Positions 2,269 to 46,206 are shown, counted from the stretch's first letter. The stretch: DNA of 64,000 nt from an uncultured Acidobacteriota bacterium (GCA_963792785.1 CAWBXO010000004.1:1282278-1346277), one strand, 5' to 3'. Notes: generated by a model not told the origin, from the sequence alone. Numbers and translations: made by a program.

Positions 2269-2496
2269 TCACGGGCCTCCAAGCACACCCGCCAGGGCGA
2301 GTGCCGAGTAGATCAGCACGATGAACATCACGGGCGCATAGACCAGCGCGATTGCACCGGTTCGACGAGGGTAAGCGCGGGACAGCGGATAGAACCCAAC
2401 CGCGACGGCTACCGGCACCGCGAACACAGAGACAACGTTCGATAGTTCCGGCACGCGGCCACCGATGGCGTAACCGACCGCCAGCGTTCCGGCCAA
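2269..2496 (-). CDS. small hydrophobic membrane protein (hypothetical)
   Basis: 75-aa ORF from TTG: LAGTLAVGYAIGG...VSVFAVPVAVAVGFYPL...GAIALVYAPVMFIVLIYSALALAGVLGGP. The start is uncertain because the first helix seems to begin upstream of any start codon. Confidence 0.4.
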   Translation of the reverse strand: MAGTLAVGYAIGGRVPELSNVVSVFAVPVAVAVGFYPLSRAYPRRTGAIALVYAPVMFIVLIYSALALAGVLGGP

Positions 2497-3447: not shown

Positions 3448-3463
3448 GGGACAGTTTAGAACG

Positions 3464-3499
3464 GTGCTAGCGTGCTAGGTGCTAGGTGCTGGGTGCACT
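3464..3499. repeat. GTGCTAG tandem heptamer array (about 5 units) in a divergent intergenic region
   Basis: gtgctagc gtgctag gtgctag gtgctgg gtgcact. No inverted partner was found nearby. Confidence 0.7.
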
Positions 3500-5435: not shown

Positions 5436-6575
5436 ATGGCGATCAACGCGAAGAACCTGGCGACCATCCAGATGATGTGGCGGCGCGAGGTCGAGGCCGC
5501 GACGACCTACCGGTATCTCGCCGGGCGGGAAACCGACCCCAACCGCCGCGACATCCTGAACCGCCTGGCCGAGCAGGAAGAGACGCACGCCGCGCGCTGG
5601 TCCGAGCGCATCGAAGCCACCACCGGCACGGCGCCCGATCCGCAGACCGTGCGCCAGGGCCTGAACTGGTTCGAGCGCATCGCCGACCCGATCGTGATCC
5701 TCCAGCGCCTCGAGCAGGAGGAGAACCGCGCCGAAGAAGAGTACGACGCCCTGATGGCGCGCCTCGCCGATCCGTCCGACCGGAAGATCGCCGAGGAGGC
5801 CAAGGACGAAGAGCGCGACCACGCGGTGATCCTGCGATCGCTCGCGGGCGGCGCCATGCCGTCGCCCCGCCACACGCTCGACCGGATCCTCGGCCGGGAG
5901 CGCTGGCACGTGCGGGGCACGGGCTGGATCGGCGACGCAATCTACGGCGTCAACGACGGCCTCGGCGCCGTCTTCGGCATCGTCTCGGGGATGGCGGGCT
6001 ACACCGGCGGCAGCGAAGTGGTGCTGGCCGCCGGCCTGGCCGGCATGGCCGCGAGCGCCCTCTCGATGGGCGCGGGCGCGTACCTCGCGTCGAAGTCGCA
6101 GCGCGAGGTGTACGAGGCGGAGGTCGCGCGCGAGCGGGCCGAAATCGAGGAGGACCCGCACGAGGAGATGGTCGAGCTGGAGCTGTTCTACCAGCTCAAG
6201 GGCTTCACGCCCGACGAAGCGCGGAACATGGCCGAGCGGCTGCAGAAAGACCCGAAGCAGTTCCTGCGGGCGCTCGTGCACGAAGAGCTCGGCCTCGCCG
6301 AGGAGACGTTCCCCAACCCGTGGCGCTCCACGATCTCGGCGGCGCTCTCGACGGCCGTCGGCGGGTTCATCCCGATCATCCCGTTCTTCTTCACCGTGGG
6401 CATGCCCGCGGTGATCGCGTCGTTCACCATCAGCACGATCGCCCACTTCGTCGTCGGCGCCTCGAAGGCGCTCGTCACCGCGCGCCCCTGGTGGGCGACG
6501 GGAATCGAGATGACGATCGTCGGAATCCTCGAAGCCGCCATCACGTACGGCCTCGGCCTCGCGTTCGCGTCCTGA
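5436..6575 (+). CDS. mbfA: ferritin-like (erythrin) domain fused to a VIT1/CCC1 iron/manganese transporter, MbfA-like
   Basis: 379 aa. N-terminal four-helix motifs E..A...Y and EQEETHAARW ... EEAKDEERDH. C-terminal VIT1 motifs DAIYGVNDGLGAVFGIVSG and EMTIVGILEAAITYGLG. Confidence 0.8.
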   Translation: MAINAKNLATIQMMWRREVEAATTYRYLAGRETDPNRRDILNRLAEQEETHAARWSERIEATTGTAPDPQTVRQGLNWFERIADPIVILQRLEQEENRAEEEYDALMARLADPSDRKIAEEAKDEERDHAVILRSLAGGAMPSPRHTLDRILGRERWHVRGTGWIGDAIYGVNDGLGAVFGIVSGMAGYTGGSEVVLAAGLAGMAASALSMGAGAYLASKSQREVYEAEVARERAEIEEDPHEEMVELELFYQLKGFTPDEARNMAERLQKDPKQFLRALVHEELGLAEETFPNPWRSTISAALSTAVGGFIPIIPFFFTVGMPAVIASFTISTIAHFVVGASKALVTARPWWATGIEMTIVGILEAAITYGLGLAFAS

Positions 6576-10502: not shown

Positions 10503-10925
10503 ATGGAATACGAGTCCGGCAACTACCCTCTGCACGCGCCCGCGTCGGAGGCCGTCACCAACAACGTCCGCGTCGAAGTGCACTCGAGCTACGCGCCCGA
10601 GCATTCGCTGCCCTTCCAGGGCGTCTGGTCCTTCTATTACACCGTGCGCATCACGAACGAAGGCCACGGGACCGTGCAGTTGATCAGCCGCGAGTGGGTC
10701 ATCACGGACCAGACCGGCCACATCGAGAACGTGAAGGGCCCGGGCGTCGTCGGCGTGCAGCCCGTGCTCGCGCCGGGCGAGTCGTTCGAGTACACGTCAG
10801 GGAGCCGGCTGAACACGCCGAACGGCGTGATGCGCGGGACGTATCACATGAAGGGCGAGCTCGACGATCACTTCGAGGTCGAGATCGCGCCGTTCGCGCT
10901 CTCGGAACCGTACACCATCCACTAA
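10503..10925 (+). CDS. apaG: ApaG (DUF525) protein
   Basis: 140 aa with FYYTVRITNEG...VQLISREWVITDQTGHIENVKGPGVVGVQPVLAPGESFEYTSG. Confidence 0.85.
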   Translation: MEYESGNYPLHAPASEAVTNNVRVEVHSSYAPEHSLPFQGVWSFYYTVRITNEGHGTVQLISREWVITDQTGHIENVKGPGVVGVQPVLAPGESFEYTSGSRLNTPNGVMRGTYHMKGELDDHFEVEIAPFALSEPYTIH

Positions 10926-11000
10926 GTCGCACGTCGCAAGACGATGATGACTTGCGACTGATGACTCTGACTTGCGACGAGAGACTTGCGACGTGCGACT
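10925..11000. repeat. 76-bp palindromic element with GTCGCAAG-type arms between convergent apaG and ispG
   Basis: AGTCGCACGTCGCAAG (10925-10940) is the perfect reverse complement of CTTGCGACGTGCGACT (10985-11000). Extra CTTGCGAC copies lie at 10951 and 10971. Each arm overlaps a stop codon. Confidence 0.85.
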
Positions 11001-13236: not shown

Positions 13237-14540
13237 CAGTCGCAAGCCGCAAGGCGCAAGTCACAAGTCTGATCACGGGTGTCACGCTGCTGGGCCTGTC
13301 TGCCGGCGTCGCGCTGCGGGCGCAGCGGGCGACGGCGGCGGATCCGTCGCGCGGCAAGGTGATCTACGACGCGCACTGCGTGGAATGCCACGGCACGGAC
13401 GGCCGCGGCGACGGTCCGGCCTCGCCGCTGCTCGAGCCGCGCCCTCGCGACTTCACGAGCGGCAAGTTCAAGATCCGGACCACCGAGACCGGCAGCCTGC
13501 CGACCGACGCCGATCTGATCCGATCCGTCTCCGACGGCCTCGCGTCCACGGCGATGCCGGCCTGGCGCGGCATTCTGCGAGACGACGAGATCCGCGACGT
13601 CGTCGGCTACGTGAAGTCGCTGTCGCCGCGGTTCGTCGGCGAGGTGGTGCAGGAAGTCACGCTCGGCCCCGAGACGCCCCGCACGCCCGAGAGCGTCGCG
13701 CGCGGCTCGCTCGTGTACCAGACGCTGCAGTGCGCGAAGTGCCACGGCGTCGACGGCCGCGGCACGGGCGCCGTCACCACCGACTTCCAGGACGACTGGG
13801 GGCAGCCGCTCCCGGCAGCGGACCTCACCGAACCGTGGACGTTCCGCGGCGGCGCCGCGCCGCGCGATATCTACCTGCGCTTCCGCACCGGCATGTCGGG
13901 CACGCCGATGCCGTCGTTCAAGGAGGCCGCGAGCGACGCCGACATGTGGGACCTCGCGAACTTCATCGCCTCGCTCGGCCGCAAGCCGGTCTGGGAGATG
14001 GACGCCGGCGAGGTGTCGGCCCTTTACGCGCGGAACGCGGACGAGGCGAAGGCCGATCCCGTGACGCGCGGCGAGTATCTGTCGAAGACGCTGCTGTGCG
14101 TCGTCTGCCACTCGCCGCTCGGCGACGACGGCCGCGTGGTCGCCTCGTTGAAGATGGCCGGCGGCCAGCTGATACGCATCACGCCGTACGGCGATTTTCC
14201 GACGGCGAACCTCACGTCGGATCCCGGGACGGGCCTCGGCACGTGGTCGGACGACCAGATCAAGACCGTGCTCACGCGCGGCGTGCGGCCCGACGGCACG
14301 AAGATGCTGCCGTTCCCGATGGACTGGCCGAGCTTCTCGGCGCTCTCGCCCGACGACTTGAACGCGATCGTCGCCTACCTGCGGAGCGTTCCGCCGATCG
14401 TGAACCGCGTCCCGCCGCGCTCGCGGCCGTTCCTGCCCGTGTATCTCTGGGGCAAGTTCAAGATGCTCGTCATGGGGATCGATCCGCCGATGCTGTTCTT
14501 CCCGGGCAACGTCGGCTCGGCGGGGAGCCCCAGGGGATGA
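13233..14540 (+). CDS. triheme c-type cytochrome (secreted)
   Basis: Three CXXCH motifs (CVECH, CAKCH, CVVCH). Hydrophobic N-terminus. The ATG overlaps the qor stop (ATGA). Confidence 0.85.
   Translation: MTVASRKAQVTSLITGVTLLGLSAGVALRAQRATAADPSRGKVIYDAHCVECHGTDGRGDGPASPLLEPRPRDFTSGKFKIRTTETGSLPTDADLIRSVSDGLASTAMPAWRGILRDDEIRDVVGYVKSLSPRFVGEVVQEVTLGPETPRTPESVARGSLVYQTLQCAKCHGVDGRGTGAVTTDFQDDWGQPLPAADLTEPWTFRGGAAPRDIYLRFRTGMSGTPMPSFKEAASDADMWDLANFIASLGRKPVWEMDAGEVSALYARNADEAKADPVTRGEYLSKTLLCVVCHSPLGDDGRVVASLKMAGGQLIRITPYGDFPTANLTSDPGTGLGTWSDDQIKTVLTRGVRPDGTKMLPFPMDWPSFSALSPDDLNAIVAYLRSVPPIVNRVPPRSRPFLPVYLWGKFKMLVMGIDPPMLFFPGNVGSAGSPRG
13239..13267. repeat. GTCGCAAG-like heptamer/octamer tandem array lying inside the cytochrome c coding sequence
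   Basis: gtcgcaag ccgcaag gcgcaag tcacaag is translated as VASRKAQVTS, in the n-region of the signal peptide. Confidence 0.65.
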
Positions 14541-15151
14541 CGATGAAGAAGATCCTCAAGCGCACCGCGATCGCGATCGCCGTGGTGGGTGTCATCGCCT
14601 TCCTGGCATTCCTGTACTTCATCCCGCCGTTCTCGTTCATGGAGCCGGAGGAGTTTTCCGGTCCTCAGAACGACGCGGCCCCCGGCGTGGCGGCGATCGC
14701 GGACCCGGCCGAGCGCGCGATCGCCGAGCACGGGCGCTATCTCGTCATGACCACGGGCTGCATCGGCTGCCACCAGGTGCCGGCGGCGCAAGGCCCCGAC
14801 TTCTCGCGCTACCTCGCGGGCGGCATGCGGTTCGTCACACCGCACGGCACGTTCGTGAGCCGCAACCTCACGCCCGATCCGGCGACGGGCCTCGCCCGCC
14901 GGACCGACGACGACGTGAAGCGCGTGCTGCGCAGCGGCACGTTCCCCGACGGCCACGTGACGTCGTACCGGACGATGCCGTGGGGCGGCTACACGAGCTG
15001 GACCGAGGAAGATCGGCACGCGGTGCTCGTCTACCTGCGGCACCTGCCCGCCGTGCCGCACGCGATCCCCGATCCGGTGCCGACGGCCGTCGTCGATCCT
15101 CCCGCGGTCGAGGCAGTCTACGGCGGCTACGACTACGGCCGCACGCCGTAA
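14537..15151 (+). CDS. monoheme c-type cytochrome, N-terminally membrane anchored
   Basis: ATG 14537 overlaps the upstream stop (ATGA). TM helix AIAIAVVGVIAFLAFLYFI. One CIGCH motif. Confidence 0.8.
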   Translation: MTMKKILKRTAIAIAVVGVIAFLAFLYFIPPFSFMEPEEFSGPQNDAAPGVAAIADPAERAIAEHGRYLVMTTGCIGCHQVPAAQGPDFSRYLAGGMRFVTPHGTFVSRNLTPDPATGLARRTDDDVKRVLRSGTFPDGHVTSYRTMPWGGYTSWTEEDRHAVLVYLRHLPAVPHAIPDPVPTAVVDPPAVEAVYGGYDYGRTP

Positions 15152-15160
15152 CTCATCCTC

Positions 15161-15372
15161 AACCACAGAGGCACAGAGGTCGTCCGGTGCGGTGATCGGC
15201 GCGGACGGCCTGCGTCGCAGGCCGCAGTCCAAGGGAAGAAGACCGGAGGACGCAAGCCCGGAGGGCCAGGCTGGGCTTGTGTCCTCCGGTCTTCTTCCCT
15301 TGGACGGGCCGCCTACGGCGGCCCGCGCCGATCACCCGCGATCCGTCTCCGTGTCTCTGTGTCTCTGTGGTT
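15161..15372. repeat. 212-bp nested palindromic element with CACAGAGG-repeat termini (family member 1)
   Basis: Termini AACCACAGAGGCACAGAGG and CTCTGTGTCTCTGTGGTT. 12-bp stem at 15191-15202/15325-15336. Perfect 25-bp stem at 15227-15251/15281-15305. Two flanking 8-bp hairpins. Confidence 0.9.
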
Positions 15373-15400
15373 TGCTGCCGGGTGTGGAATAATCGACGGT

Positions 15401-18289
15401 GTGGCAGAAACAATTGACTGGCCGACGGGCCGACGGGCCGGGCGGCCGGTCGGGTTTCTCGTCCTTGGACTCCTCGCCGTCCTGCTCATCGGCGGCGGCA
15501 CGGTACTCTCGTACTACGTCGACGCCCTCTGGTTCGGCTCGCTCGGCTTCTCCGACGTCTTCTGGACGTCACTGAACTACGAGGCGATCGTCTTCGGCAT
15601 CTTCGCGCTGGCGACGTTCGTCGTCCTCTACGGCGCGTTCCTCGCGCTGAAGCCCGCGAAGCTCTCGGACTTCATGGGCGGGCCGATCCTGATCAACGGC
15701 CAGCCGCTGCGCCTCCCGGTCGAGCCCGTGCTGCGGCTCGTCGCCGGCGGCGGCGCCCTCTTCATCTCCGTCGTCACGGGCTTCGGCATGATGGGCGACT
15801 GGCGCGTTTTCGCGCTGTACCAGCACGCGCCGGCGGCCGCGTCGACGGTGCTCGATCCGATCTTCGGCCGGCCGCTCACCTTCTACCTGTTCACGCTGCC
15901 GGTGTGGCAGCTCGTGAGCGGCTGGGCGATGGTGCTCGCCGTGCTCACCTGCCTGGTCGCGGTGTTCTTCCTGGTCGTCGGCGGGGGCACGTGGATGGCG
16001 GTGGGCCGGCGGCGCGACGCGCACGCGCCGTCGCTGCGCGGGGTCTCGCTCGCGTTCGCGTTCCTGCTGCTCGCGCTCGCGTCGCGGGCGTATCTCGGAC
16101 GCTTCGAGCGCCTGTTCGACGACCACACGATCTTCAGCGGCGTCGGCTACACCGACGCGCACGTGGGCCTCACCGGCATGCTCGTCGTCTCGGGCGCGCT
16201 GGTGCTCGGCGCCCTGATGGCGGCGGCCAACGCCGTGGCCGCGCCGCGCGTGCGGTGGATCGTCGCGGCGGTGATTCCGGCGGCGGTGGCCTACTTCGGC
16301 GTGGGCGTGCTCACGTGGTACGTCGGCTCCTTCATCGTGCGCCCGAACGAACTGGTGCGCGAGACGCCGTACATCGCGCACAACATCGAGATGACGCGCG
16401 CGGCCTACGCGCTCGATCGGGTGGAGCAGCACGACTTCCCGGCCGACGCCGGCCTGAGCGCCGTGGACCTCGCGAATAACACCGACACGATCGACAACAT
16501 CCGGCTGTGGGACTGGCGCGCGCTCCAGGACACGCTGCGCCAGATCCAGGAGATCCGGACGTACTACGACTTCCCCGACGTCGACATCGATCGGTACGAG
16601 GTGAACGGCTCGGTGCGCCAGATGATGCTCGCCGCCCGCGAGCTGAGCATCGACAAGCTGCCCGAGAGCAGCCGGAACTGGATCAACGAGAAGCTGATCT
16701 ACACGCACGGCTACGGCGTGACGATGAACCCGGTGAACGGCTTCACGACGGAGGGCCTGCCGACGCTCACGCTCAGCAACATGCCGGTCGAGAGCACGGT
16801 CCCGTCGATCCAGGTCACGCGGCCGGAAATCTACTTCGGCCAGATGACGAACACCGACGTGTACGTGAACACGCGGCAGAACGAGTTCAACTACCCGCAA
16901 GGCGAGACCAACGCGTTCGCGTCGTACCAGGGCAAGGGCGGCATCGTCCTCGGCGGGTTCCTGCGGCGCACGCTCATCGCGCTCGAGCGCGGCGACATCT
17001 CGCGGCTGCCCTTCAGCGACGACATCACGGCCGAGAGCCGGCTGCTGATGCGGCGCAACGTGCAGCAGCGCGTGCAGACGCTCGCGCCGTTCCTCACCTT
17101 CGACGCCGATCCCTACATCGTGATCGGCGAGGGCGGCCGCCTCTTCTGGATCATGGACGCCTACACGACGTCCGATCGCTTCCCGTACTCGCGGCCGTAT
17201 CGGCTCGGCACGGCGCGCCTCAACTACATGCGGAACAGCGTGAAAGCGGTGGTCGACGCGTACGACGGCTCGGTGACGTTCTACGTGTTCGACGACGAAG
17301 ATCCGGTCATCGCGGCGTACCGGAACCTGTTCCCGACGCTGTTCACCGATCGGTCGGAGATGCCGGCCGGGCTGCTCGCGCACGTGCGCTACCCCCAGCT
17401 CTTCCTGCAGATGCAGGCGGCCGTCTACGGCCTGTATCACATGACGGATCCCGAGGTGTTCTACAACCGCGAGGATCTGTGGACGGTCGCCGCCGAGGTG
17501 GGGCTCTCGGCGCAGCGCCAGCAGACCGCGCAGGTCATGGAGCCGAATTTCGTCCTGATGCGGCTGCCTGGCGAGGAGTCGCTCGAGTTCGTCGAGATCC
17601 TCCCGTTTACACCGGCCAACCGCAATAACCTCATCGGCTGGATCGCCGGCAGGAGCGACGGCGAGAACTATGGCAAGGCCATGGTCTACGACTTCCCGAA
17701 GACGAAGCTCATCGACGGACCGCTGCAGATCGAGGCGCGCATCGATCAGAACGCGCAGCTGTCGGGACAGCTGTCGCTCTGGAATCAGCAGGGATCGAAC
17801 GTCCGCCGCGGCACGCTCATCGTGATCCCGATCGGCCGCGCCCTGCTTTACGCCGAGCCGATCTACCTGCAAGCCGAGCGCAGCCCGATGCCGCAGCTGC
17901 GGATCGTGGTCCTGGCGCTGCAGGATCGGCTGGCCTACGGGCCGACCTTCGAGGACGCGCTGTCGGCGCTCTTCGGCCAGCAGGAATCGTCGCTGACGCC
18001 GCGCCAGGGCTCCCGGCCGGACAACGCCTCGGGAGCCGTCTCCAACCCGGACACCGCCGCGGCCGCGGCCAACGCGGCGACGTCACCAGGTGCAGCCGGT
18101 GCACCCGGCACCGCCGCGCCTACGCCTGCGTCCGCGCCCGGATCGACCGACGTGAACGCGCTCATCGCCGGCGCCGCGCAGGATTTCGAGGAATACCAGC
18201 GGCTGACCGCCGCCGGCCGCCTCAGCGAAGCCGGCCAGCGCCTGGAAGCGCTGAAGCAGAAGCTGGAGCAACTGCAGACCCTCCGGTAA
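15401..18289 (+). CDS. UPF0182 family large membrane protein
   Basis: About 960 aa with N-terminal multi-TM region (YYVDALWFGSLGFSDVFWT) and a long soluble part (YTHGYGVTMNPVNG, LFWIMDAYTTSDRFPYS, LLYAEPIYLQAE). The start is set at GTG 15401 because the track start lies inside the repeat. Confidence 0.85.
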   Translation: MAETIDWPTGRRAGRPVGFLVLGLLAVLLIGGGTVLSYYVDALWFGSLGFSDVFWTSLNYEAIVFGIFALATFVVLYGAFLALKPAKLSDFMGGPILINGQPLRLPVEPVLRLVAGGGALFISVVTGFGMMGDWRVFALYQHAPAAASTVLDPIFGRPLTFYLFTLPVWQLVSGWAMVLAVLTCLVAVFFLVVGGGTWMAVGRRRDAHAPSLRGVSLAFAFLLLALASRAYLGRFERLFDDHTIFSGVGYTDAHVGLTGMLVVSGALVLGALMAAANAVAAPRVRWIVAAVIPAAVAYFGVGVLTWYVGSFIVRPNELVRETPYIAHNIEMTRAAYALDRVEQHDFPADAGLSAVDLANNTDTIDNIRLWDWRALQDTLRQIQEIRTYYDFPDVDIDRYEVNGSVRQMMLAARELSIDKLPESSRNWINEKLIYTHGYGVTMNPVNGFTTEGLPTLTLSNMPVESTVPSIQVTRPEIYFGQMTNTDVYVNTRQNEFNYPQGETNAFASYQGKGGIVLGGFLRRTLIALERGDISRLPFSDDITAESRLLMRRNVQQRVQTLAPFLTFDADPYIVIGEGGRLFWIMDAYTTSDRFPYSRPYRLGTARLNYMRNSVKAVVDAYDGSVTFYVFDDEDPVIAAYRNLFPTLFTDRSEMPAGLLAHVRYPQLFLQMQAAVYGLYHMTDPEVFYNREDLWTVAAEVGLSAQRQQTAQVMEPNFVLMRLPGEESLEFVEILPFTPANRNNLIGWIAGRSDGENYGKAMVYDFPKTKLIDGPLQIEARIDQNAQLSGQLSLWNQQGSNVRRGTLIVIPIGRALLYAEPIYLQAERSPMPQLRIVVLALQDRLAYGPTFEDALSALFGQQESSLTPRQGSRPDNASGAVSNPDTAAAAANAATSPGAAGAPGTAAPTPASAPGSTDVNALIAGAAQDFEEYQRLTAAGRLSEAGQRLEALKQKLEQLQTLR

Positions 18290-20715: not shown

Positions 20716-21276
20716 ATGCCGCCCGTGCGTTCCCTCTGCGTGTATGCCGGCTCCGCCACAGGCGCCCGGCCCGAGTATGCCGAGGCGGCGCGCCATCTGG
20801 GCCGGCTGATGGCCGCGCGCGGCTGCGGCCTCGTGTACGGGGGCGGCGCCATCGGCTTGATGGGCGTCCTGGCGGACACGGTGCTCGCGGAGGGCGGGCG
20901 CGTGATCGGCGTCATCCCCGACTTCCTCGCCTCGAAGGAAATCGCGCACGCCGGTCTCACCGAACTGCTCGTCGTCGAGACGATGCACGCGCGCAAGGCG
21001 CTGATGGCGGCGCGCTCCGACGCGTTCGTCGCCCTCCCGGGCGGCCTCGGCACGCTCGACGAGCTGTTCGAGATGCTCACATGGGCGCAGCTCGGCCTGC
21101 ACGACAAGCCGTGCGGCCTGCTGAACGTGGCCGGCTATTTCGACGACGTGGTCAGGTTCCTGGATCGGGCGGTGGCCGAGGGGTTCGTGAAGGCGCACCA
21201 CCGCGATCGCATTCTCATCGACACCGACGCGGCGCGCCTCCTCGACCGCTGCGAGTCTGGTAGGATTTCCGTATGA
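20716..21276 (+). CDS. LOG family protein (TIGR00730-type nucleotide phosphoribohydrolase)
   Basis: VYGGGAIGLMG and PGGLGTLDELFE motifs; 186 aa. Confidence 0.88.
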   Translation: MPPVRSLCVYAGSATGARPEYAEAARHLGRLMAARGCGLVYGGGAIGLMGVLADTVLAEGGRVIGVIPDFLASKEIAHAGLTELLVVETMHARKALMAARSDAFVALPGGLGTLDELFEMLTWAQLGLHDKPCGLLNVAGYFDDVVRFLDRAVAEGFVKAHHRDRILIDTDAARLLDRCESGRISV

Positions 21277-22055
21277 GACTGCTGCTCGCCCTGCCGTTCG
21301 TGTTCGCCGCCGCCGCCGTGTTCGCCCAGACGCCCGCGCCGCCCGACGTGGCCGCGCCGCCCGCCGACGCGCAGAAGACGCCGTCGGGCCTGGCGTCGAA
21401 GGTGCTGACGAAGGGCACCGGCACGGCCCACCCCTCGAAGACCGACGTGGTCACCGTGCACTACACGGGCTGGACGACCGACGGCAAGATGTTCGACAGC
21501 TCGTACGCGCGCGGCGAGAAGGCGACGTTTCCGCTGGACCGCGTGATCGCGGGCTGGACCGAAGGCGTGCAGCAGATGGTCGTGGGCGAGAAGCGCCGCT
21601 TCTGGATTCCGGAGAACCTGGCCTACAAGGGCCTGCGCGATCCGAAGGGCATGCTGGTGTTCGACGTGGAGCTCTTCTCCTTCGCGCCGTCGCCGACGAT
21701 CCCGCCGCCCGACGTGAAGGCGCCGCCCGCCGACGCGACGAAGACGGCGTCGGGCCTGGCCTACAAGGTGCTGCGGCCCGGCACGGGCACGCGCCATCCG
21801 GCGGCGACGAGCCAGGTCACGGTGGACTACTCGGGTTGGACGACCGACGGGAAGCTCTTCGACAGCTCGATCACACGCGGCGAGCCGGCGACGTTTCCGC
21901 TGAACGGTGTGATCAAGGGCTGGACCGAGGGCGTGCAGCTCATGGTGGAAGGCGAGAAGGCGAGGTTCTGGATTCCCGAGAACCTCGCCTACCAGGGCCA
22001 GCAGCCGCCGTACGGCTTGCTCGTGTTCGACGTAGAGCTGCTGCAGATCAAATAG
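21273..22055 (+). CDS. secreted FKBP-type peptidyl-prolyl isomerase with two tandem FKBP domains
   Basis: Signal peptide, then two copies of V.Y.GWTTDGK.FDSS...FPL..VI.GWTEGVQ.MV.GEK.RFWIPENLAY. The ATG overlaps the LOG stop (ATGA). Confidence 0.9.
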   Translation: MRLLLALPFVFAAAAVFAQTPAPPDVAAPPADAQKTPSGLASKVLTKGTGTAHPSKTDVVTVHYTGWTTDGKMFDSSYARGEKATFPLDRVIAGWTEGVQQMVVGEKRRFWIPENLAYKGLRDPKGMLVFDVELFSFAPSPTIPPPDVKAPPADATKTASGLAYKVLRPGTGTRHPAATSQVTVDYSGWTTDGKLFDSSITRGEPATFPLNGVIKGWTEGVQLMVEGEKARFWIPENLAYQGQQPPYGLLVFDVELLQIK

Positions 22056-26261: not shown

Positions 26262-26272
26262 TGACCGCCCTT

Positions 26273-26312
26273 CCGCATTCCTGCATTCTTGCATTTCCGC
26301 CTTCGTGCATTT
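26273..26312. repeat. degenerate CTGCATTC octamer array (third copy of the GCAGGAAT family)
   Basis: ccgcattc ctgcattc ttgcattt ... gtgcattt fills most of the 43-bp spacer between the divergent peroxiredoxin and Nudix starts. Confidence 0.7.
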
Positions 26313-29345: not shown

Positions 29346-29450
29346 TAGCCGTTAGTTGTTAGCTGTTAGCCGTTAGCTGTTAGCCGTTAGCCGTTAGCTG
29401 TTAGCCGTTAGCTGTTCGCCCTAATGGCTAATGGCTAACGGCTACTGGCT
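29346..29450. repeat. about 105-bp hairpin element made of CYGTTAG heptamers (about 10 units) followed by about 4 inverted CTAAYGG units
   Basis: tagccgttag ttgttag ctgttag ccgttag ... then ctaatgg ctaatgg ctaacgg ctactgg. It starts 5 nt after the glnN stop. Confidence 0.85.
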
Positions 29451-29465
29451 TTATACTGTTCCCCG

Positions 29466-31880
29466 TTGGCCAAGCGTCGATCCAAAGCGCAATCCCTGTT
29501 CGACAACCTGGACGCCGGCGGCAGCGGCGGTGCGGCCGGCGGCCCGCCGTCGTGGCCCGCGCCGATCGAGGCGGTCGCGCTGCACGAGGCCGCGCAGTCC
29601 CGCTACCTCAACTACGCGCTGTCGGTCATCACCGCCCGCGCGCTGCCCGACGTCCGCGACGGCCTGAAGCCCGTCCAGCGCCGCATCCTGTACACGATGT
29701 GGCAGCAGAACCTGACCGCCGACGTCAAGCACCGGAAGTGCGCGAAAGTCGTCGGCGACGTGATGGGCAGCTTCCACCCGCACGGCGACGCCGCGCTCTA
29801 CGAGACGCTCGTGCGCATGGCGCAGCCCTTCTCGCTGCGCTATCCCCTGGTCGACGGCTCCGGCAACTTCGGATCGCTCGACGGCGACAGCGCCGCGGCC
29901 ATGCGCTACACCGAGTGCCGGCTGGCGAGAATCAGCGACGAGCTGCTCACCGAGATCGAGCAGTCGACGGTGCCGTTCCGGCCCAACTACGACGGCACGA
30001 AGACCGAGCCCGTCGTGCTGCCGGCGCGGATCCCCAACCTGCTGGTCAACGGCGCCACCGGCATTGCCGTCGGCATGGCGACCAACGTGCCGCCGCACAA
30101 CCTGGCCGAGGTCTGCACGGCGCTCATCAAGCTCCTCGACAACGAGGACATGGGCAATACCGCGCTGTGCCGCGTGATCAAGGGTCCCGACTTCCCCACC
30201 GGCGGACAGATCCTGAACTCGCCCGAGGAGCTGCGCGAGATCTACCGGACGGGATCCGGATCGATCCGGCTGCGCGGCACGTGGGACATCGGGCCGGACA
30301 CGCGCTCGACCAAGACGATCTTCATCGACAGCATTCCGTACACGGTGAACAAGTCGACGCTCGTCGAGCGGATCGCCGAGGTGGTGCTGAGCCGCAAGCT
30401 GCCGCAGCTCCTCGACGTGAAGGATCTCTCGACCGAGGACGTCCGCATCGCGCTCGAGCTGAAGAAGGACGCCGACGAGAAGATGATCATGGCGTATCTC
30501 TTCAAGCACACGCCGCTGCAGATCAACGTGGTGGTGAACCTCACCTGCCTGATTCCGACCGAGCAGGCGGAAGTGGGACGGCCCGAGCGCCTGGATCTCA
30601 AGTCGATCCTGTGGCACTTCCTGCACTTCCGCCTCGACGTGGTCACGCGCCGGCTCGAGCACGAGCTCGCCACGCTCAAGAAGCGCATCCACATCCTCGA
30701 GGGCCTCGCCACGGTCTTCGACGCGCTCGACGAGATCATCAAGATCATCCGCAAGTCGGACGGCAAGGCCGACGCCGCGGAGAAGATCATGAAGCGGTTC
30801 GAGCTCGACGCCGACCAGACCGACGCGATCCTCGAGCTGAAGATCTACCGCCTCGCCCGCCTCGAGATCCTCGTGATCCGCGAGGAGCTCGACGAGAAGA
30901 AGAAGCGCGCGCGGCAGATCGGCGCGCTGCTCAAGGACGAGGACAGCCGCTGGTCGCTCGTGCGCGGCGAGCTCGACGAGATCCTGAAGACCTACGCCGA
31001 TCCGAAGGCCGACAAGCGGCGCACCCGCATCGCGAGCGACAGCGACGAGCCCGAGTACTCGGCCGACGACTTCATCGTCGAGGAAGACAACGTCGTGATC
31101 GTGTCGCGCGACGGCTGGGTGAAGCGGCAGAAGGACGTCAAGGACCTCTCCACGCAGCGGCTGCGCGAAGGCGACGCCGTGCTGGCGGCGTTCGGCGGGA
31201 GCACGCGCGCCACGTGCGTGTTCTTCTCGAGCGCCGGCGTGGCCTACACGTGCCGGTTCATCGACGTGCCCGCCTCGACCGGCTACGGCGAGCCCATCCA
31301 GAAGCAGTTCAAGCTCAAGGACGGGGAGCGGATCGTCGCGGCAATGAGTCTCGACCCGCGCGTGGCCGGCGCGATCGTGCCGAAGAAAGCCGGCGACCCG
31401 GCCAAGGTTCACGCCGTGGCCGTGTCGAGCGACGGCTACGCGCTGCGGTTCGGTTTGGACGGCCTCGTCGAGCCGAGCACGCGCGCCGGGCGGCGGTACG
31501 CGCGGCCGTCCAAGGACGCGGAGATGCTCGGCGTCGCGCGATACACGGGCGACGAGGTCCTGATCGCCGCCACCGCCGAGGCCCGCGGGATCCTCGCGAA
31601 GGCGGAGGAAGCGAACTTCCTCTCGGGGCCCGGCAAGGGCGTACTGCTGATCAAACTGGGCAAGGACGATCGCGTGCTCGGCTTCATCGCCTCGACGGGC
31701 GACCGCGACCTGCTGACCGTCGAGACGAGCCGCGGCGCCGAGCAGACGATCAGCACGGCGAAGTACGAGGTGACGGGCCGCGGCGGGAAGGGGCGCGAGC
31801 TGCTCCAGCGCGGCCAGTTCGTGAAGATCCTCTGGCCGACGCCGGACGTCCCCGCCCCGCTCGGCCCGGACTCGAAGTAG
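29466..31880 (+). CDS. parC: type IIA topoisomerase subunit A, ParC-like (topoisomerase IV)
   Basis: 804 aa from TTG with [19 protein letters not shown] (Q rather than the gyrase H), HPHGD and active-site AAMRYTE. C-terminal beta-pinwheel repeats. Confidence 0.8.
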
Positions 31881-31885
31881 ATCTC

Positions 31886-32115
31886 AACCACAGAGGACAC
31901 AGAGGCACAGAGGGATCACGCGGTGCACGCTTGACGTGCGCTCGGCGCGGGGCGGCCTGCGCAGCAGGCCGTGGCAGGAGCGAGGGAGACGCGGAGACAT
32001 GCCGCTCTGGATCGTCCGGCGGCATGTCTCCGCGTCTCCCTCGCTCCTGCCGCCCGCCTTCGGCGGCCCCGCGTCGAGCGTTCGGTGCCCTCCGTGCCTC
32101 CGTGTCTCCGTGGTT
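31886..32115. repeat. 230-bp nested palindromic element with CACAGAGG-repeat termini (family member 2)
   Basis: Termini AACCACAGAGGACACAGAGGCACAGAGGG and CCCTCCGTGCCTCCGTGTCTCCGTGGTT. Perfect 32-bp stem at 31973-32004/32020-32051. Flanking hairpins are the same as in member 1. Confidence 0.9.
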
Positions 32116-32153
32116 CAATCCGCTAGTACAATGACAGCGAAAGGAATGCCCAT

Positions 32154-46022: not shown

Positions 46023-46035
46023 GTCGGGGCTTCCT

Positions 46036-46202
46036 AGAGGTTCTGGAGGTTCCAGGGGTTCTGGGGGTTCTGGAGGTCGGGTTCCAAGGTTCGATGGTTC
46101 GGAGGTGCAAGGGTTCCACACGGGAACCTGTTGAACTTTCGAACGTCCGAACATTAGAACCCGACCCCCAGAACCCCCAGAACCCCTGGAGCCTCCAGAA
46201 CC
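46036..46202. repeat. about 167-bp palindromic element with GGTTCTGG/CCAGAACC tandem arms between convergent genes
   Basis: GGTTCTGG at 46039, 46057 and 46066. CCAGAACC at 46168, 46177 and 46195. GGTCGGGTTC (46075-46084) pairs with GAACCCGACC (46157-46166). Central GGTTCC-acacg-GGAACC. Confidence 0.85.
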
Positions 46203-46206
46203 GCTG

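Follow-up and report, generated by a model that had tools for sequence, protein, structure and literature searches.

A 64,000-nucleotide stretch of DNA from an uncultured Acidobacteriota bacterium (GCA_963792785.1 CAWBXO010000004.1:1282278-1346277; hereafter the window) contains a 212-bp palindrome at positions 15161-15372 (copy 1), which is self-complementary end to end and belongs to a family of non-coding, hairpin-forming repeats in soil Acidobacteria. We consider it somewhat better than an even chance (about 55%) that this element is a non-coding, non-autonomous, nested foldback repeat of extragenic DNA that acts through DNA or RNA hairpins, resembling either the hairpins formed by doublets of repetitive extragenic palindromic (REP) sequences (REPINs) or the miniature inverted-repeat transposable elements (MITEs). 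Two modules make up the element. The outer module is a hairpin with tandem CACRRAGR arms bounded by TT(A/C)ACCAC, which occurs in viral contigs as well as in many bacterial phyla, and the inner module is a four-way junction (closing stem, hairpin 1, central hairpin of ~79 nt and hairpin 3), seen in soil metagenomes only so far. Self-complementarity persists despite sequence divergence, and copies have been gained, have decayed and have been lost at given loci.

Fold, copies and conserved pairing

Copy 1 is located among housekeeping genes, in the order alcohol dehydrogenase, two cytochrome c genes, copy 1 and UPF0182. TAA at 15149-15151 is the stop codon of the adjoining cytochrome c gene (14537-15151); downstream, the start of the UPF0182 gene is GTG at 15401. 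A preliminary description of this DNA had placed the element correctly but had put it 10 nt after the stop codon; the spacer before the first A of copy 1 is 9 nt. Copy 1 consists of the following parts.

15161-15372, no strand: whole element; its core scores 100.9 bits with covariance model R1
15161-15179, no strand: left outer arm, AAC followed by two units of CACAGAGG, from the repeat and inverted-pair analysis
15191-15202: 5' half of the closing stem of the four-way junction, GGTGATCGGCGC, pairing with 15325-15336
15206-15224: hairpin 1, CGGCCTGC-GTC-GCAGGCCG, with an 8-bp stem and a 3-nt loop, from an inverted pair
15227-15305: central hairpin, with 33-nt arms, a 13-nt loop and CAAGCC...GGCTTG near the tip, from an inverted pair
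15305-15325: hairpin 3, GGGCCGCC-TAC-GGCGGCCC, from an inverted pair
15325-15336: 3' half of the closing stem, GCGCCGATCACC, from an inverted pair and covariation
15345-15372, no strand: right outer arm, three units of GTCTCYGT followed by GGTT, the inverted partner of the left arm with A/G transitions

The terminus AACCACAGAGGCACAGAG (15161-15178) pairs with 15355-15372 and is 94% complementary to it. The closing stem extends to 15191-15210/15317-15336 (90% complementary), and the 12 bp first noted in it are indeed perfect. The two central arms (15227-15259 and 15273-15305) are 97% complementary. Every stem in the preliminary description was found at its position; its perfect 25-bp stem is present but is only the basal part of the 33-nt central arms.

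Folding of the 229-nt region as RNA gave -174.4 kcal/mol on the + strand, compared with -100.0 +/- 5.0 kcal/mol for shuffled sequences (z = -14.8; 0 of 200 shuffles were as good), and -164.3 kcal/mol on the - strand. As DNA, the region gave -102.3 kcal/mol (z = -14.6). The nested single fold of the copy 1 region is not due to chance. Two open reading frames (ORFs) cross copy 1, at 15159-15413 (- strand) and 15192-15392 (+ strand); they are mechanical by-products of the palindrome, and the element has no coding capacity. The ORF list also placed the start of the UPF0182 gene at a GTG at 15359, inside the right arm, and alignment with relatives moved it to the GTG at 15401, indicating that such palindromes can mislead start-codon calling.

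A second copy was located through the recurrence of the terminal double octamer CACAGAGGCACAGAGG, which matched the window seven times with up to three mismatches, against 0.51 matches expected. On its upstream side, copy 2 is 5 nt away from the stop codon of gyrA (31878-31880); downstream, 38 nt separate it from the TTG start (32154) of a gene encoding an NYN-domain protein.

31886-32115, no strand: copy 2, 230 bp; R1 scores its core (31940-32080) at 91.8 bits
31953-31971: hairpin 1, CGGCCTGC-GCA-GCAGGCCG
31973-32051: central hairpin, with 33-nt arms, 100% complementary, and a 13-nt loop
32052-32068: hairpin 3, GCCCGCC-TTC-GGCGGCC

The two copies, which adjoin unrelated housekeeping genes within 64 kb, have the same plan: the same termini, the same small hairpin CGGCCTGC-GNN-GCAGGCCG and an identical central geometry. 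The sequence of the central stem differs between them on both arms together, and the changes are fully compensated (GAAGAAGACCGGAGGAC vs GAGGGAGACGCGGAGAC).

Scanning of a metagenome collection for the two small hairpins spaced 75-105 nt apart recovered at least 63 soil-metagenome loci with 52 distinct cores; counts and taxonomic ranges from the collection scans are lower bounds. The members have a common plan, in which outer arms of tandem CACRRAGR octamers with the ends A(A/G)CCAC...GTGG(T/C)T are followed by a closing stem of 9-13 bp. Hairpin 1 has an 8-bp stem and a 3-nt loop, which reads G-N-A in 42 of 48 members, and hairpin 3 has a 7-bp stem and a loop reading T-N-C in 44 of 47 members, equal to G-N-A on the opposite strand. 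The length of the central arm is 73-81 nt (median, 79 nt) with a conserved tip, ACAAGCCGC...GCGGYTTGT, and CAAGCC...GGCTTG near the tip is kept throughout the core family. Element boundaries were set by an anchored arm-extension alignment, as boundary finding with RNAfold over-extends into GC-rich flanks.

RNAalifold predicted 47 pairs for an alignment of 48 sequences, with compensatory double changes at 31 of them. In alignment A1, compensatory changes were found in 8 of the 9 pairs of helix 1 (the closing stem) and in 22 of the 23 pairs of helices 3-5 (the central hairpin). Some pairs switch between types related by transversion, as at columns 43/126 (CG in 23 sequences, GC in 19) and columns 10/153 (CG in 32, AU in 14). 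Paired cells amounted to 93.3%, compared with 30-47% in slid controls, and there were 274 double-change cells, compared with 25-71 in slid controls. None of 500 shuffles reached any of the observed covariation measures; as metagenome copies are related by descent, the shuffle statistics overstate independence, and it is fairer to compare with the slid controls. The invariance of hairpins 1 and 3 is due in part to the search pattern, in which they were fixed, and the covariation signal is carried by the closing stem and the central arm, both of which were free to vary in the search. With copy 2, 52 cores and covariation, the element is clearly neither unique to this genome nor lacking in conserved pairing. 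Identity between cores at loci with non-homologous flanks reaches 85-91%, an alignment result that shows a dispersed family.

Syntenic relatives were recovered through the flanking proteins. The relatives of the window's proteins are named Vicinamibacterales (Acidobacteriota), and the host is a Vicinamibacterales-like acidobacterium. Three relatives, with protein identities of 73-80%, have an empty site between gyrA and the NYN-domain gene, where the window has copy 2. The copy 1 site was found in the following states, given with the protein identity of the cytochrome c.

L360, 85%: nothing; GTGTGAAATAAT 2 nt past the stop codon
L125, 85%: a single CCACAGAGG at the exact position
L358, 81%: a decayed element (AACCACATCAGTACAGAGA...CCCTCCGTG)
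L359, 79%: nothing
L123, 76%: nothing
L121, 75%: a degenerate right arm ending in GGTGGTT

These empty, decayed and one-unit sites indicate that the element was gained and lost and is dispensable at both loci. Together with copy 2 and the 52 related cores at many unrelated loci, the presence, absence and decay at both sites support the earlier suggestion of a REP/MITE-like, cruciform-forming element. Where the metagenome set retains the element at orthologous loci, identity is 93-97% in the core, 86-95% in the flanking coding DNA and 79-93% in the arms.

Motifs resembling a -10 box, TGGAATAAT at 15385-15393 and TAGTACAAT at 32124-32132, are located 12 and 8 nt past copies 1 and 2, respectively, and are kept in all syntenic relatives with or without the element (GTGTGAAATAAT; (C)TAGTACAATGA). 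The two motifs probably serve the UPF0182 gene and the NYN-domain gene as promoters; a strict sigma-70 scan called neither of them.

Outer arms across phyla and viral contigs

The arms occur in several flavours within the core family, namely CACGAAGR, CACAAAGR, CACAGAGR, CACGGAGR, CGCAGAGR and AACGGAGN, and by sequence all are forms of a single octamer, CACRRAGR, that drifts through purine transitions. The two arms of an element may differ in flavour and still pair through G-T, and one core type was found inside CACGAAG, CACAGAG, CGCAGAG or AACGGAG arms.

When one genome per species was scanned for AACCACRGAGRCACRGAG, at least 120 loci were found, and ~70 of the 120 listed had an inverted partner arm within a few hundred bases. 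Inverted arm pairs span at least eight phyla; among the matches listed, paired arms occurred in Acidobacteriota, Planctomycetota, Chloroflexota, Verrucomicrobiota, Bacteroidota, Spirochaetota and Cyanobacteria, as well as in Alpha- and Betaproteobacteria, Sorangium and Geobacter. Cultured carriers include Sorangium cellulosum So0157-2, Nostoc sp. NIES-4103 and Magnetospirillum sulfuroxidans J10. The interiors of the elements from different lineages are unrelated to each other. Viral contigs contained at least 120 loci, 59 of those listed with paired arms, and a composition-matched permuted pattern gave 10 single matches in the same contigs, making the real arm pattern at least 12-fold commoner. 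The end consensus of 156 elements is the same at both ends, a purine-rich flank followed by T-T-(A/C)-A-C-C-A-C-R-G.

Two topologies were distinguished: AACC is outermost in type A and adjoins the loop in type B. In both, the arms co-vary, idiosyncratic spacers included, which indicates that complementarity rather than the unit sequence is preserved. The 122 arm-only type A elements are placed between tandem (71), convergent (33) or divergent (18) genes, according to gene calls that are crude. The type B hairpin has the form (CTCTGTGn)n-GTGGTT, a 13-20-nt loop and AACCAC-(AGAGnCAC)n, with arms of ~40 bp, and is usually located 50-60 nt upstream of a start codon; it was observed at L053 (1820-1910 and 5700-5790) and at L007, L010, L028, L043, L060, L065 and L110.

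The modules also occur in other combinations. In L123, the genome of a relative, an element at 6262-6388, between the DUF525 gene and gcpE, has CACAGAGG arms, a closing stem and the small hairpins without the central arm. A 724-bp onion-like structure in an acidobacterial metagenome-assembled genome (L001, 557-1280) has at least three nested layers of inverted tandem repeats, the layers being CACAGAGG, CATCGCA, AACGCAGAGR and GAAACGCAAAGR, around further hairpins. Type A arms enclose whole genes at two loci. At L088 (1442-1970) the gene encodes a GxxExxY PD-(D/E)XK protein of 139-144 aa (PF13366, TIGR04256); at L030 (3117-4378), from Nostoc sp. NIES-4103, it encodes a periplasmic binding protein of 311 aa, and the arms there match at 39 of 45 positions, idiosyncratic spacers included.

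We found no described family that matches the octamer-armed element. BLAST against cultured plasmid and phage records gave no match, a search in which the low-complexity filter may mask the arms. The arm strings matched only primer sequences in the searchable full-text literature, nothing relevant, and keyword searches returned only papers on REP, REPIN and TAACTGA repeats.

Strand symmetry, mechanism and competing explanations

Neither strand of the element is preferred. Relative to core polarity, 23 elements had the better fold on the top strand and 25 on the bottom strand, with 92 and 117 G-U pairs, respectively (p = 0.33), and the most variable wobble position (alignment pair 70/95) was G-U in 15 sequences and A-C in 11. 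Relative to the upstream gene, the sense strand folded better in 5 of 13 full elements and in 7 of 13 cores. With respect to the downstream gene, there was a weak trend toward the sense strand (9 of 11, from ~5 independent loci), and the better-folding strand of the outer arms differs between the two window copies. Neither a U-tract terminator nor a terminator-like site was found at either window copy, where the sequence past the stem reads TGCTGCC (copy 1) and CAATCCG (copy 2), and an intrinsic terminator was rejected on the ground that the hairpin has no U-tract at either. A sigma-70-like promoter scan found no promoter at either copy. The whole window gave no Rfam 15 hits at the gathering threshold, and in E-value mode the region around copy 1 matched only microRNA models with long hairpins, far below threshold. 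The balance between the strands and the lack of a promoter or terminator point to an entity that is symmetric with respect to strand, be it a hairpin or cruciform of DNA or an RNA read from either side, and argue against a dedicated RNA gene. The structured RNA of the preliminary description agrees with the pairing conserved through many compensatory changes; the strand symmetry and the lack of a promoter, a U-tract terminator and an Rfam match argue against its being a discrete, strand-specific RNA gene.

Of the 59 flanks of core-family elements that were called, 42 were gene 3' ends, and 12 elements were located between convergent genes. Placement is extragenic, with a moderate bias to gene 3' ends.

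If the element is a REPIN- or MITE-like foldback repeat, the functional unit would be the intrastrand hairpin, formed in single-stranded DNA, as a cruciform or in RNA of either strand. Pairing could be kept by an unlinked trans-acting factor that recognises the folded form for copying, by arm-to-arm templated repair (quasipalindrome template switching), or by both. New copies would land preferentially in the centres of existing hairpins or beside stop codons, which would produce the nesting. Effects on the host would be secondary: placed between the cytochrome operon and the UPF0182 gene, the element might hinder read-through, protect 3' ends or be cleaved by RNase III, and it might act as a terminator or insulator as a side effect.

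Several observations weigh against this reading. All-against-all clustering of ORFs detected no recurrent protein family near the 120 listed genome loci, and no transposase, recombinase or reverse transcriptase is encoded by the ~36 genes of the window that have a Pfam annotation. Among 156 elements there was no target-site duplication and no direct repeat of 3-9 bp. The flanks are enriched only in the self-complementary TA (41 of 156) and TTAA (14 of 156), which are indistinguishable from an extension of the inverted repeat, and those of the window copies are TC/TG (copy 1) and TC/CA (copy 2). Inside long arm pairs, Pfam annotation revealed genes for a binding protein and a GxxExxY nuclease, as well as phage genes and ordinary genes, but never a transposase. 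The GxxExxY nuclease was rejected as an autonomous partner, as it was found once in ~2.8 Mb of loci and its distant viral relatives have no flanking inverted repeats. Copies at different loci are at most 91% identical, which does not demonstrate recent transposition. At orthologous loci, conservation of the core equals or exceeds that of the coding flanks, which a host-selected function would also explain, and the other palindromes of the window use units of their own (AATGCAGG, CTTGCGAC, GGTTCTGGRG and TAGCYGT), which could mean local generation.

A bolder extension of the same reading seems to us quite doubtful, namely that the TT(A/C)ACCAC-(AGAGRCAC)n hairpin is an undescribed, pan-bacterial and phage-borne module that is mobile or recruited and is served by a dedicated, unlinked factor. 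Its loop would be a landing pad for palindromes such as the four-way-junction core and for gene cassettes such as the nuclease of L088 and the binding protein of L030, and such hairpin-targeted insertion would be distinct from REP/RAYT, integrons and IS200/IS605.

The strongest competitor, which we regard as possible though unlikely, is a host-selected, cis-acting RNA structure. A very stable hairpin, transcribed in either direction by read-through from the gene upstream, would block 3' exonucleases, stop or pause the polymerase without a U-tract, be cleaved by RNase III, or combine these effects; it would separate the upstream operon from a downstream gene with its own promoter, and the family would spread since the structure is useful. 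Both window copies fit such a role in position, starting 5-9 nt past a stop codon and ending 8-12 nt before a conserved -10-like motif, and so do the excess of gene 3' ends, the elements between convergent genes and the conservation of the core at orthologous loci, which is at least that of the coding flanks. Perfect stems of 25-33 bp would also suffice in length for RNase III. However, the window copies have neither a U-tract nor a consensus terminator, and the sense strand folds no better than the antisense strand. Close relatives do without the element at both loci with no equivalent in its place, the -10-like motif of L360 being only 2 nt past the stop codon, and 18 of the 122 type A elements are located between divergent genes. 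This explanation also leaves the recurrence of the octamer and its AACC boundary across phyla and viral contigs unexplained.

It is improbable that the element is a double-stranded array of protein-binding sites. In such an array, a DNA-binding protein such as a nucleoid protein, a regulator or a recombinase would recognise CACRRAGR, symmetric binding would account for the inverted layout, and the ability to form a hairpin would be incidental. Solo or direct arrays do exist (for example, in L006, L052 and L096 and at window positions 26271-26311 and 3463-3496), both polarities occur as types A and B, and the unit and its boundary sequence are conserved across phyla. Against this, the co-varying arms and their spacers preserve complementarity rather than the unit, and the units drift by A/G transitions (CACGAAG, CACAAAG, CACAGAG, CACGGAG) and still pair through G-T. 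The core, moreover, has no iterated sites and is yet the best-conserved part, and no candidate protein was found near the 120 listed genome loci.

A discrete, trans-acting structured RNA gene is very improbable: its extensive covariation and a four-way junction of constant geometry are what such a gene would display, but there is no strand preference, no promoter or terminator at the window copies and no Rfam family, relatives dispense with the element at both loci, the copies are multiple with variable flanking arms, and a near-perfect palindrome gives equivalent folds from both strands. Just as little can be said for a local origin of the palindromes, by slipped-strand duplication and arm-to-arm template switching that enlarge terminator-like hairpins, with CACRRAGR arising convergently; nearly every post-stop hairpin of the window has its own 7-10-nt unit and neither a target-site duplication nor a transposase was found, but loci with unrelated flanks have in common a 140-nt non-tandem core at 85-91% identity, and the 18-mer with its AACC boundary exceeds the permuted control at least 12-fold in viral contigs and forms inverted pairs in many phyla.

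Known repeat systems and other palindromes of the window

In its working, the element is closest to REPINs and REP sequences or to MITEs, yet it lacks defining features of both. Like REP sequences and REPINs, which are mobilised by RAYT (TnpA-REP) Y1 transposases (Bertels & Rainey 2011, PMC3116915; PMC8266576; Di Nocera 2013, PMC3733652), it is short, extragenic, multicopy and non-coding, forms long hairpins from inverted doublets, keeps its pairing by compensatory change, persists vertically at loci for long and is often found at gene 3' ends. Unlike REP sequences, it has TT(A/C)ACCAC ends, with no GTAG/CGTC head in the profile of 156 elements, and arms of tandem octamers instead of a single REP of 20-40 bp. 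The nested four-way-junction core is foreign to REPINs, and the arm sequence is common to phyla and viral contigs, whereas REP sequences are lineage-specific. The ~36 genes annotated in the window, which covers 64 kb of this genome, include no RAYT (Y1/HUH) gene, and no such gene recurs near the 120 listed genome loci.

With bacterial MITEs (for example, Correia/NEMIS, ERIC and Nezha), the element has in common terminal inverted repeats, a length within 60-370 bp, a non-coding, dispersed and intergenic nature, presence or absence between relatives and the possibility of nesting. It differs from them in having no target-site duplication and an interior that is unrelated between lineages, only the arms being common. 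A parent insertion sequence with the same ends was not found in ~2.8 Mb of loci.

Short tandem units that cross phyla have a precedent in the unexplained TAACTGA heptamer repeats (MacGregor 2015, PMC4679880). Like these and the cyanobacterial short tandemly repeated repetitive (STRR) sequences, the octamers are 7-8-nt intergenic tandem units of distant phyla with no known transfer mechanism or binding factor. STRR and TAACTGA repeats are, however, 7-nt direct arrays mostly just upstream of starts, whereas the octamers form 8-nt inverted pairs, mostly past stops, that enclose palindromes. Intervening sequences of 23S ribosomal RNA (rRNA) genes, such as that of Coxiella (PMC4990558), are likewise selfish insertions with long complementary ends, forming a stem that RNase III cleaves and might cleave in the element, and with an occasional small ORF (here, in L088); unlike them, the element is located outside rRNA, most copies have no ORF and the cargo is heterogeneous (binding protein, nuclease, small membrane proteins).

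The attC sites of integrons are also imperfect palindromes of ~60-140 bp, running from ...AAC to GTT..., that keep structure over sequence, and they work as folded single strands. The element differs in its octamer arms and nested core, and the window has neither a cassette array nor intI. As an attC site it was rejected, since the R''/R' boxes RYYYAAC/GTTRRRY are mismatched (CCTCAAC/GTTTGCT in copy 1 and TCTCAAC/GTTCAAT in copy 2). By eye, the likeness of the ends to attC, a DnaA box, a tRNA T-loop or a Shine-Dalgarno/anti-Shine-Dalgarno pair was partial or inconsistent between the copies, and these candidates were set aside. Eukaryotic Foldback (FB) elements also combine long inverted arms, made up of short tandem repeats, with a middle that varies and sometimes with cargo; the likeness is an analogy only, as they belong to another domain of life and another size scale.

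To our knowledge, dispersed palindromic repeats are well described in Proteobacteria (REP sequences, bacterial interspersed mosaic elements and REPINs with RAYT) and almost uncharted in Acidobacteriota, Planctomycetota, Chloroflexota and Verrucomicrobiota. A 140-nt four-way junction maintained through dozens of compensatory changes and conserved to the same degree as neighbouring genes is unusual, as are the nested layers and the use of the same 8-mer array as arms in many phyla and viral contigs; two features are surprising, the covariation-supported core and the fact that phyla and viral contigs have identical arm sequences. Should there be a trans-acting factor, the family would represent a new hairpin-recognising system of mobilisation or processing, and if no such factor exists, it would be a clean natural case of palindromes perfected and expanded by replication template switching. 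In practice, such elements break assemblies, create spurious ORFs and mimic predictions of microRNA or RNA genes.

Other palindromes and arrays were observed in the window. Between the convergent DUF525 and gcpE genes, a palindrome of CTTGCGAC/GTCGCAAG octamers at 10920-11000 occupies the same intergenic position as the L123 element. An 840-bp segment of lower GC content at 1840-2680 contains small ORFs resembling membrane proteins at 1871-2191 and 2269-2496 (both on the - strand) and is bounded by inverted octamers, two units of AATGCAGG at 1841-1858 and 5.8 units of TGCATTCC at 2632-2677. It is located exactly between the stops of convergent methyltransferase and SDR genes, which are 17 bp apart in L121. 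Directly past the stop of the glutamine synthetase III gene, at 29346-29450, a hairpin is formed by 10.7 units of TAGCYGT facing 4.3 units of CTAATGG, and the heptamer array TAGCYGTTAGCYGTTAGCYG, of the TAGCYGT unit, is present in at least 32 viral contigs. Past the gene for an FG-GAP protein, at 46034-46205, 75-nt arms that are 85% complementary consist of 9-10-nt units, (GAGGTTCTG)n facing (ACCCCCAGA)n.

Two solo tandem arrays have no inverted partner nearby, five units of TTCCTGCA at 26271-26311 and 4.7 units of GGTGCTA at 3463-3496; both are intergenic and adjoin gene starts, and the TTCCTGCA unit is related to the AATGCAGG unit. A 366-bp unit repeated 1.9 times with 80% identity at 21337-22039 lies inside a gene that scores as encoding a double FKBP_C-domain protein (21273-22055) and represents an internal domain duplication.

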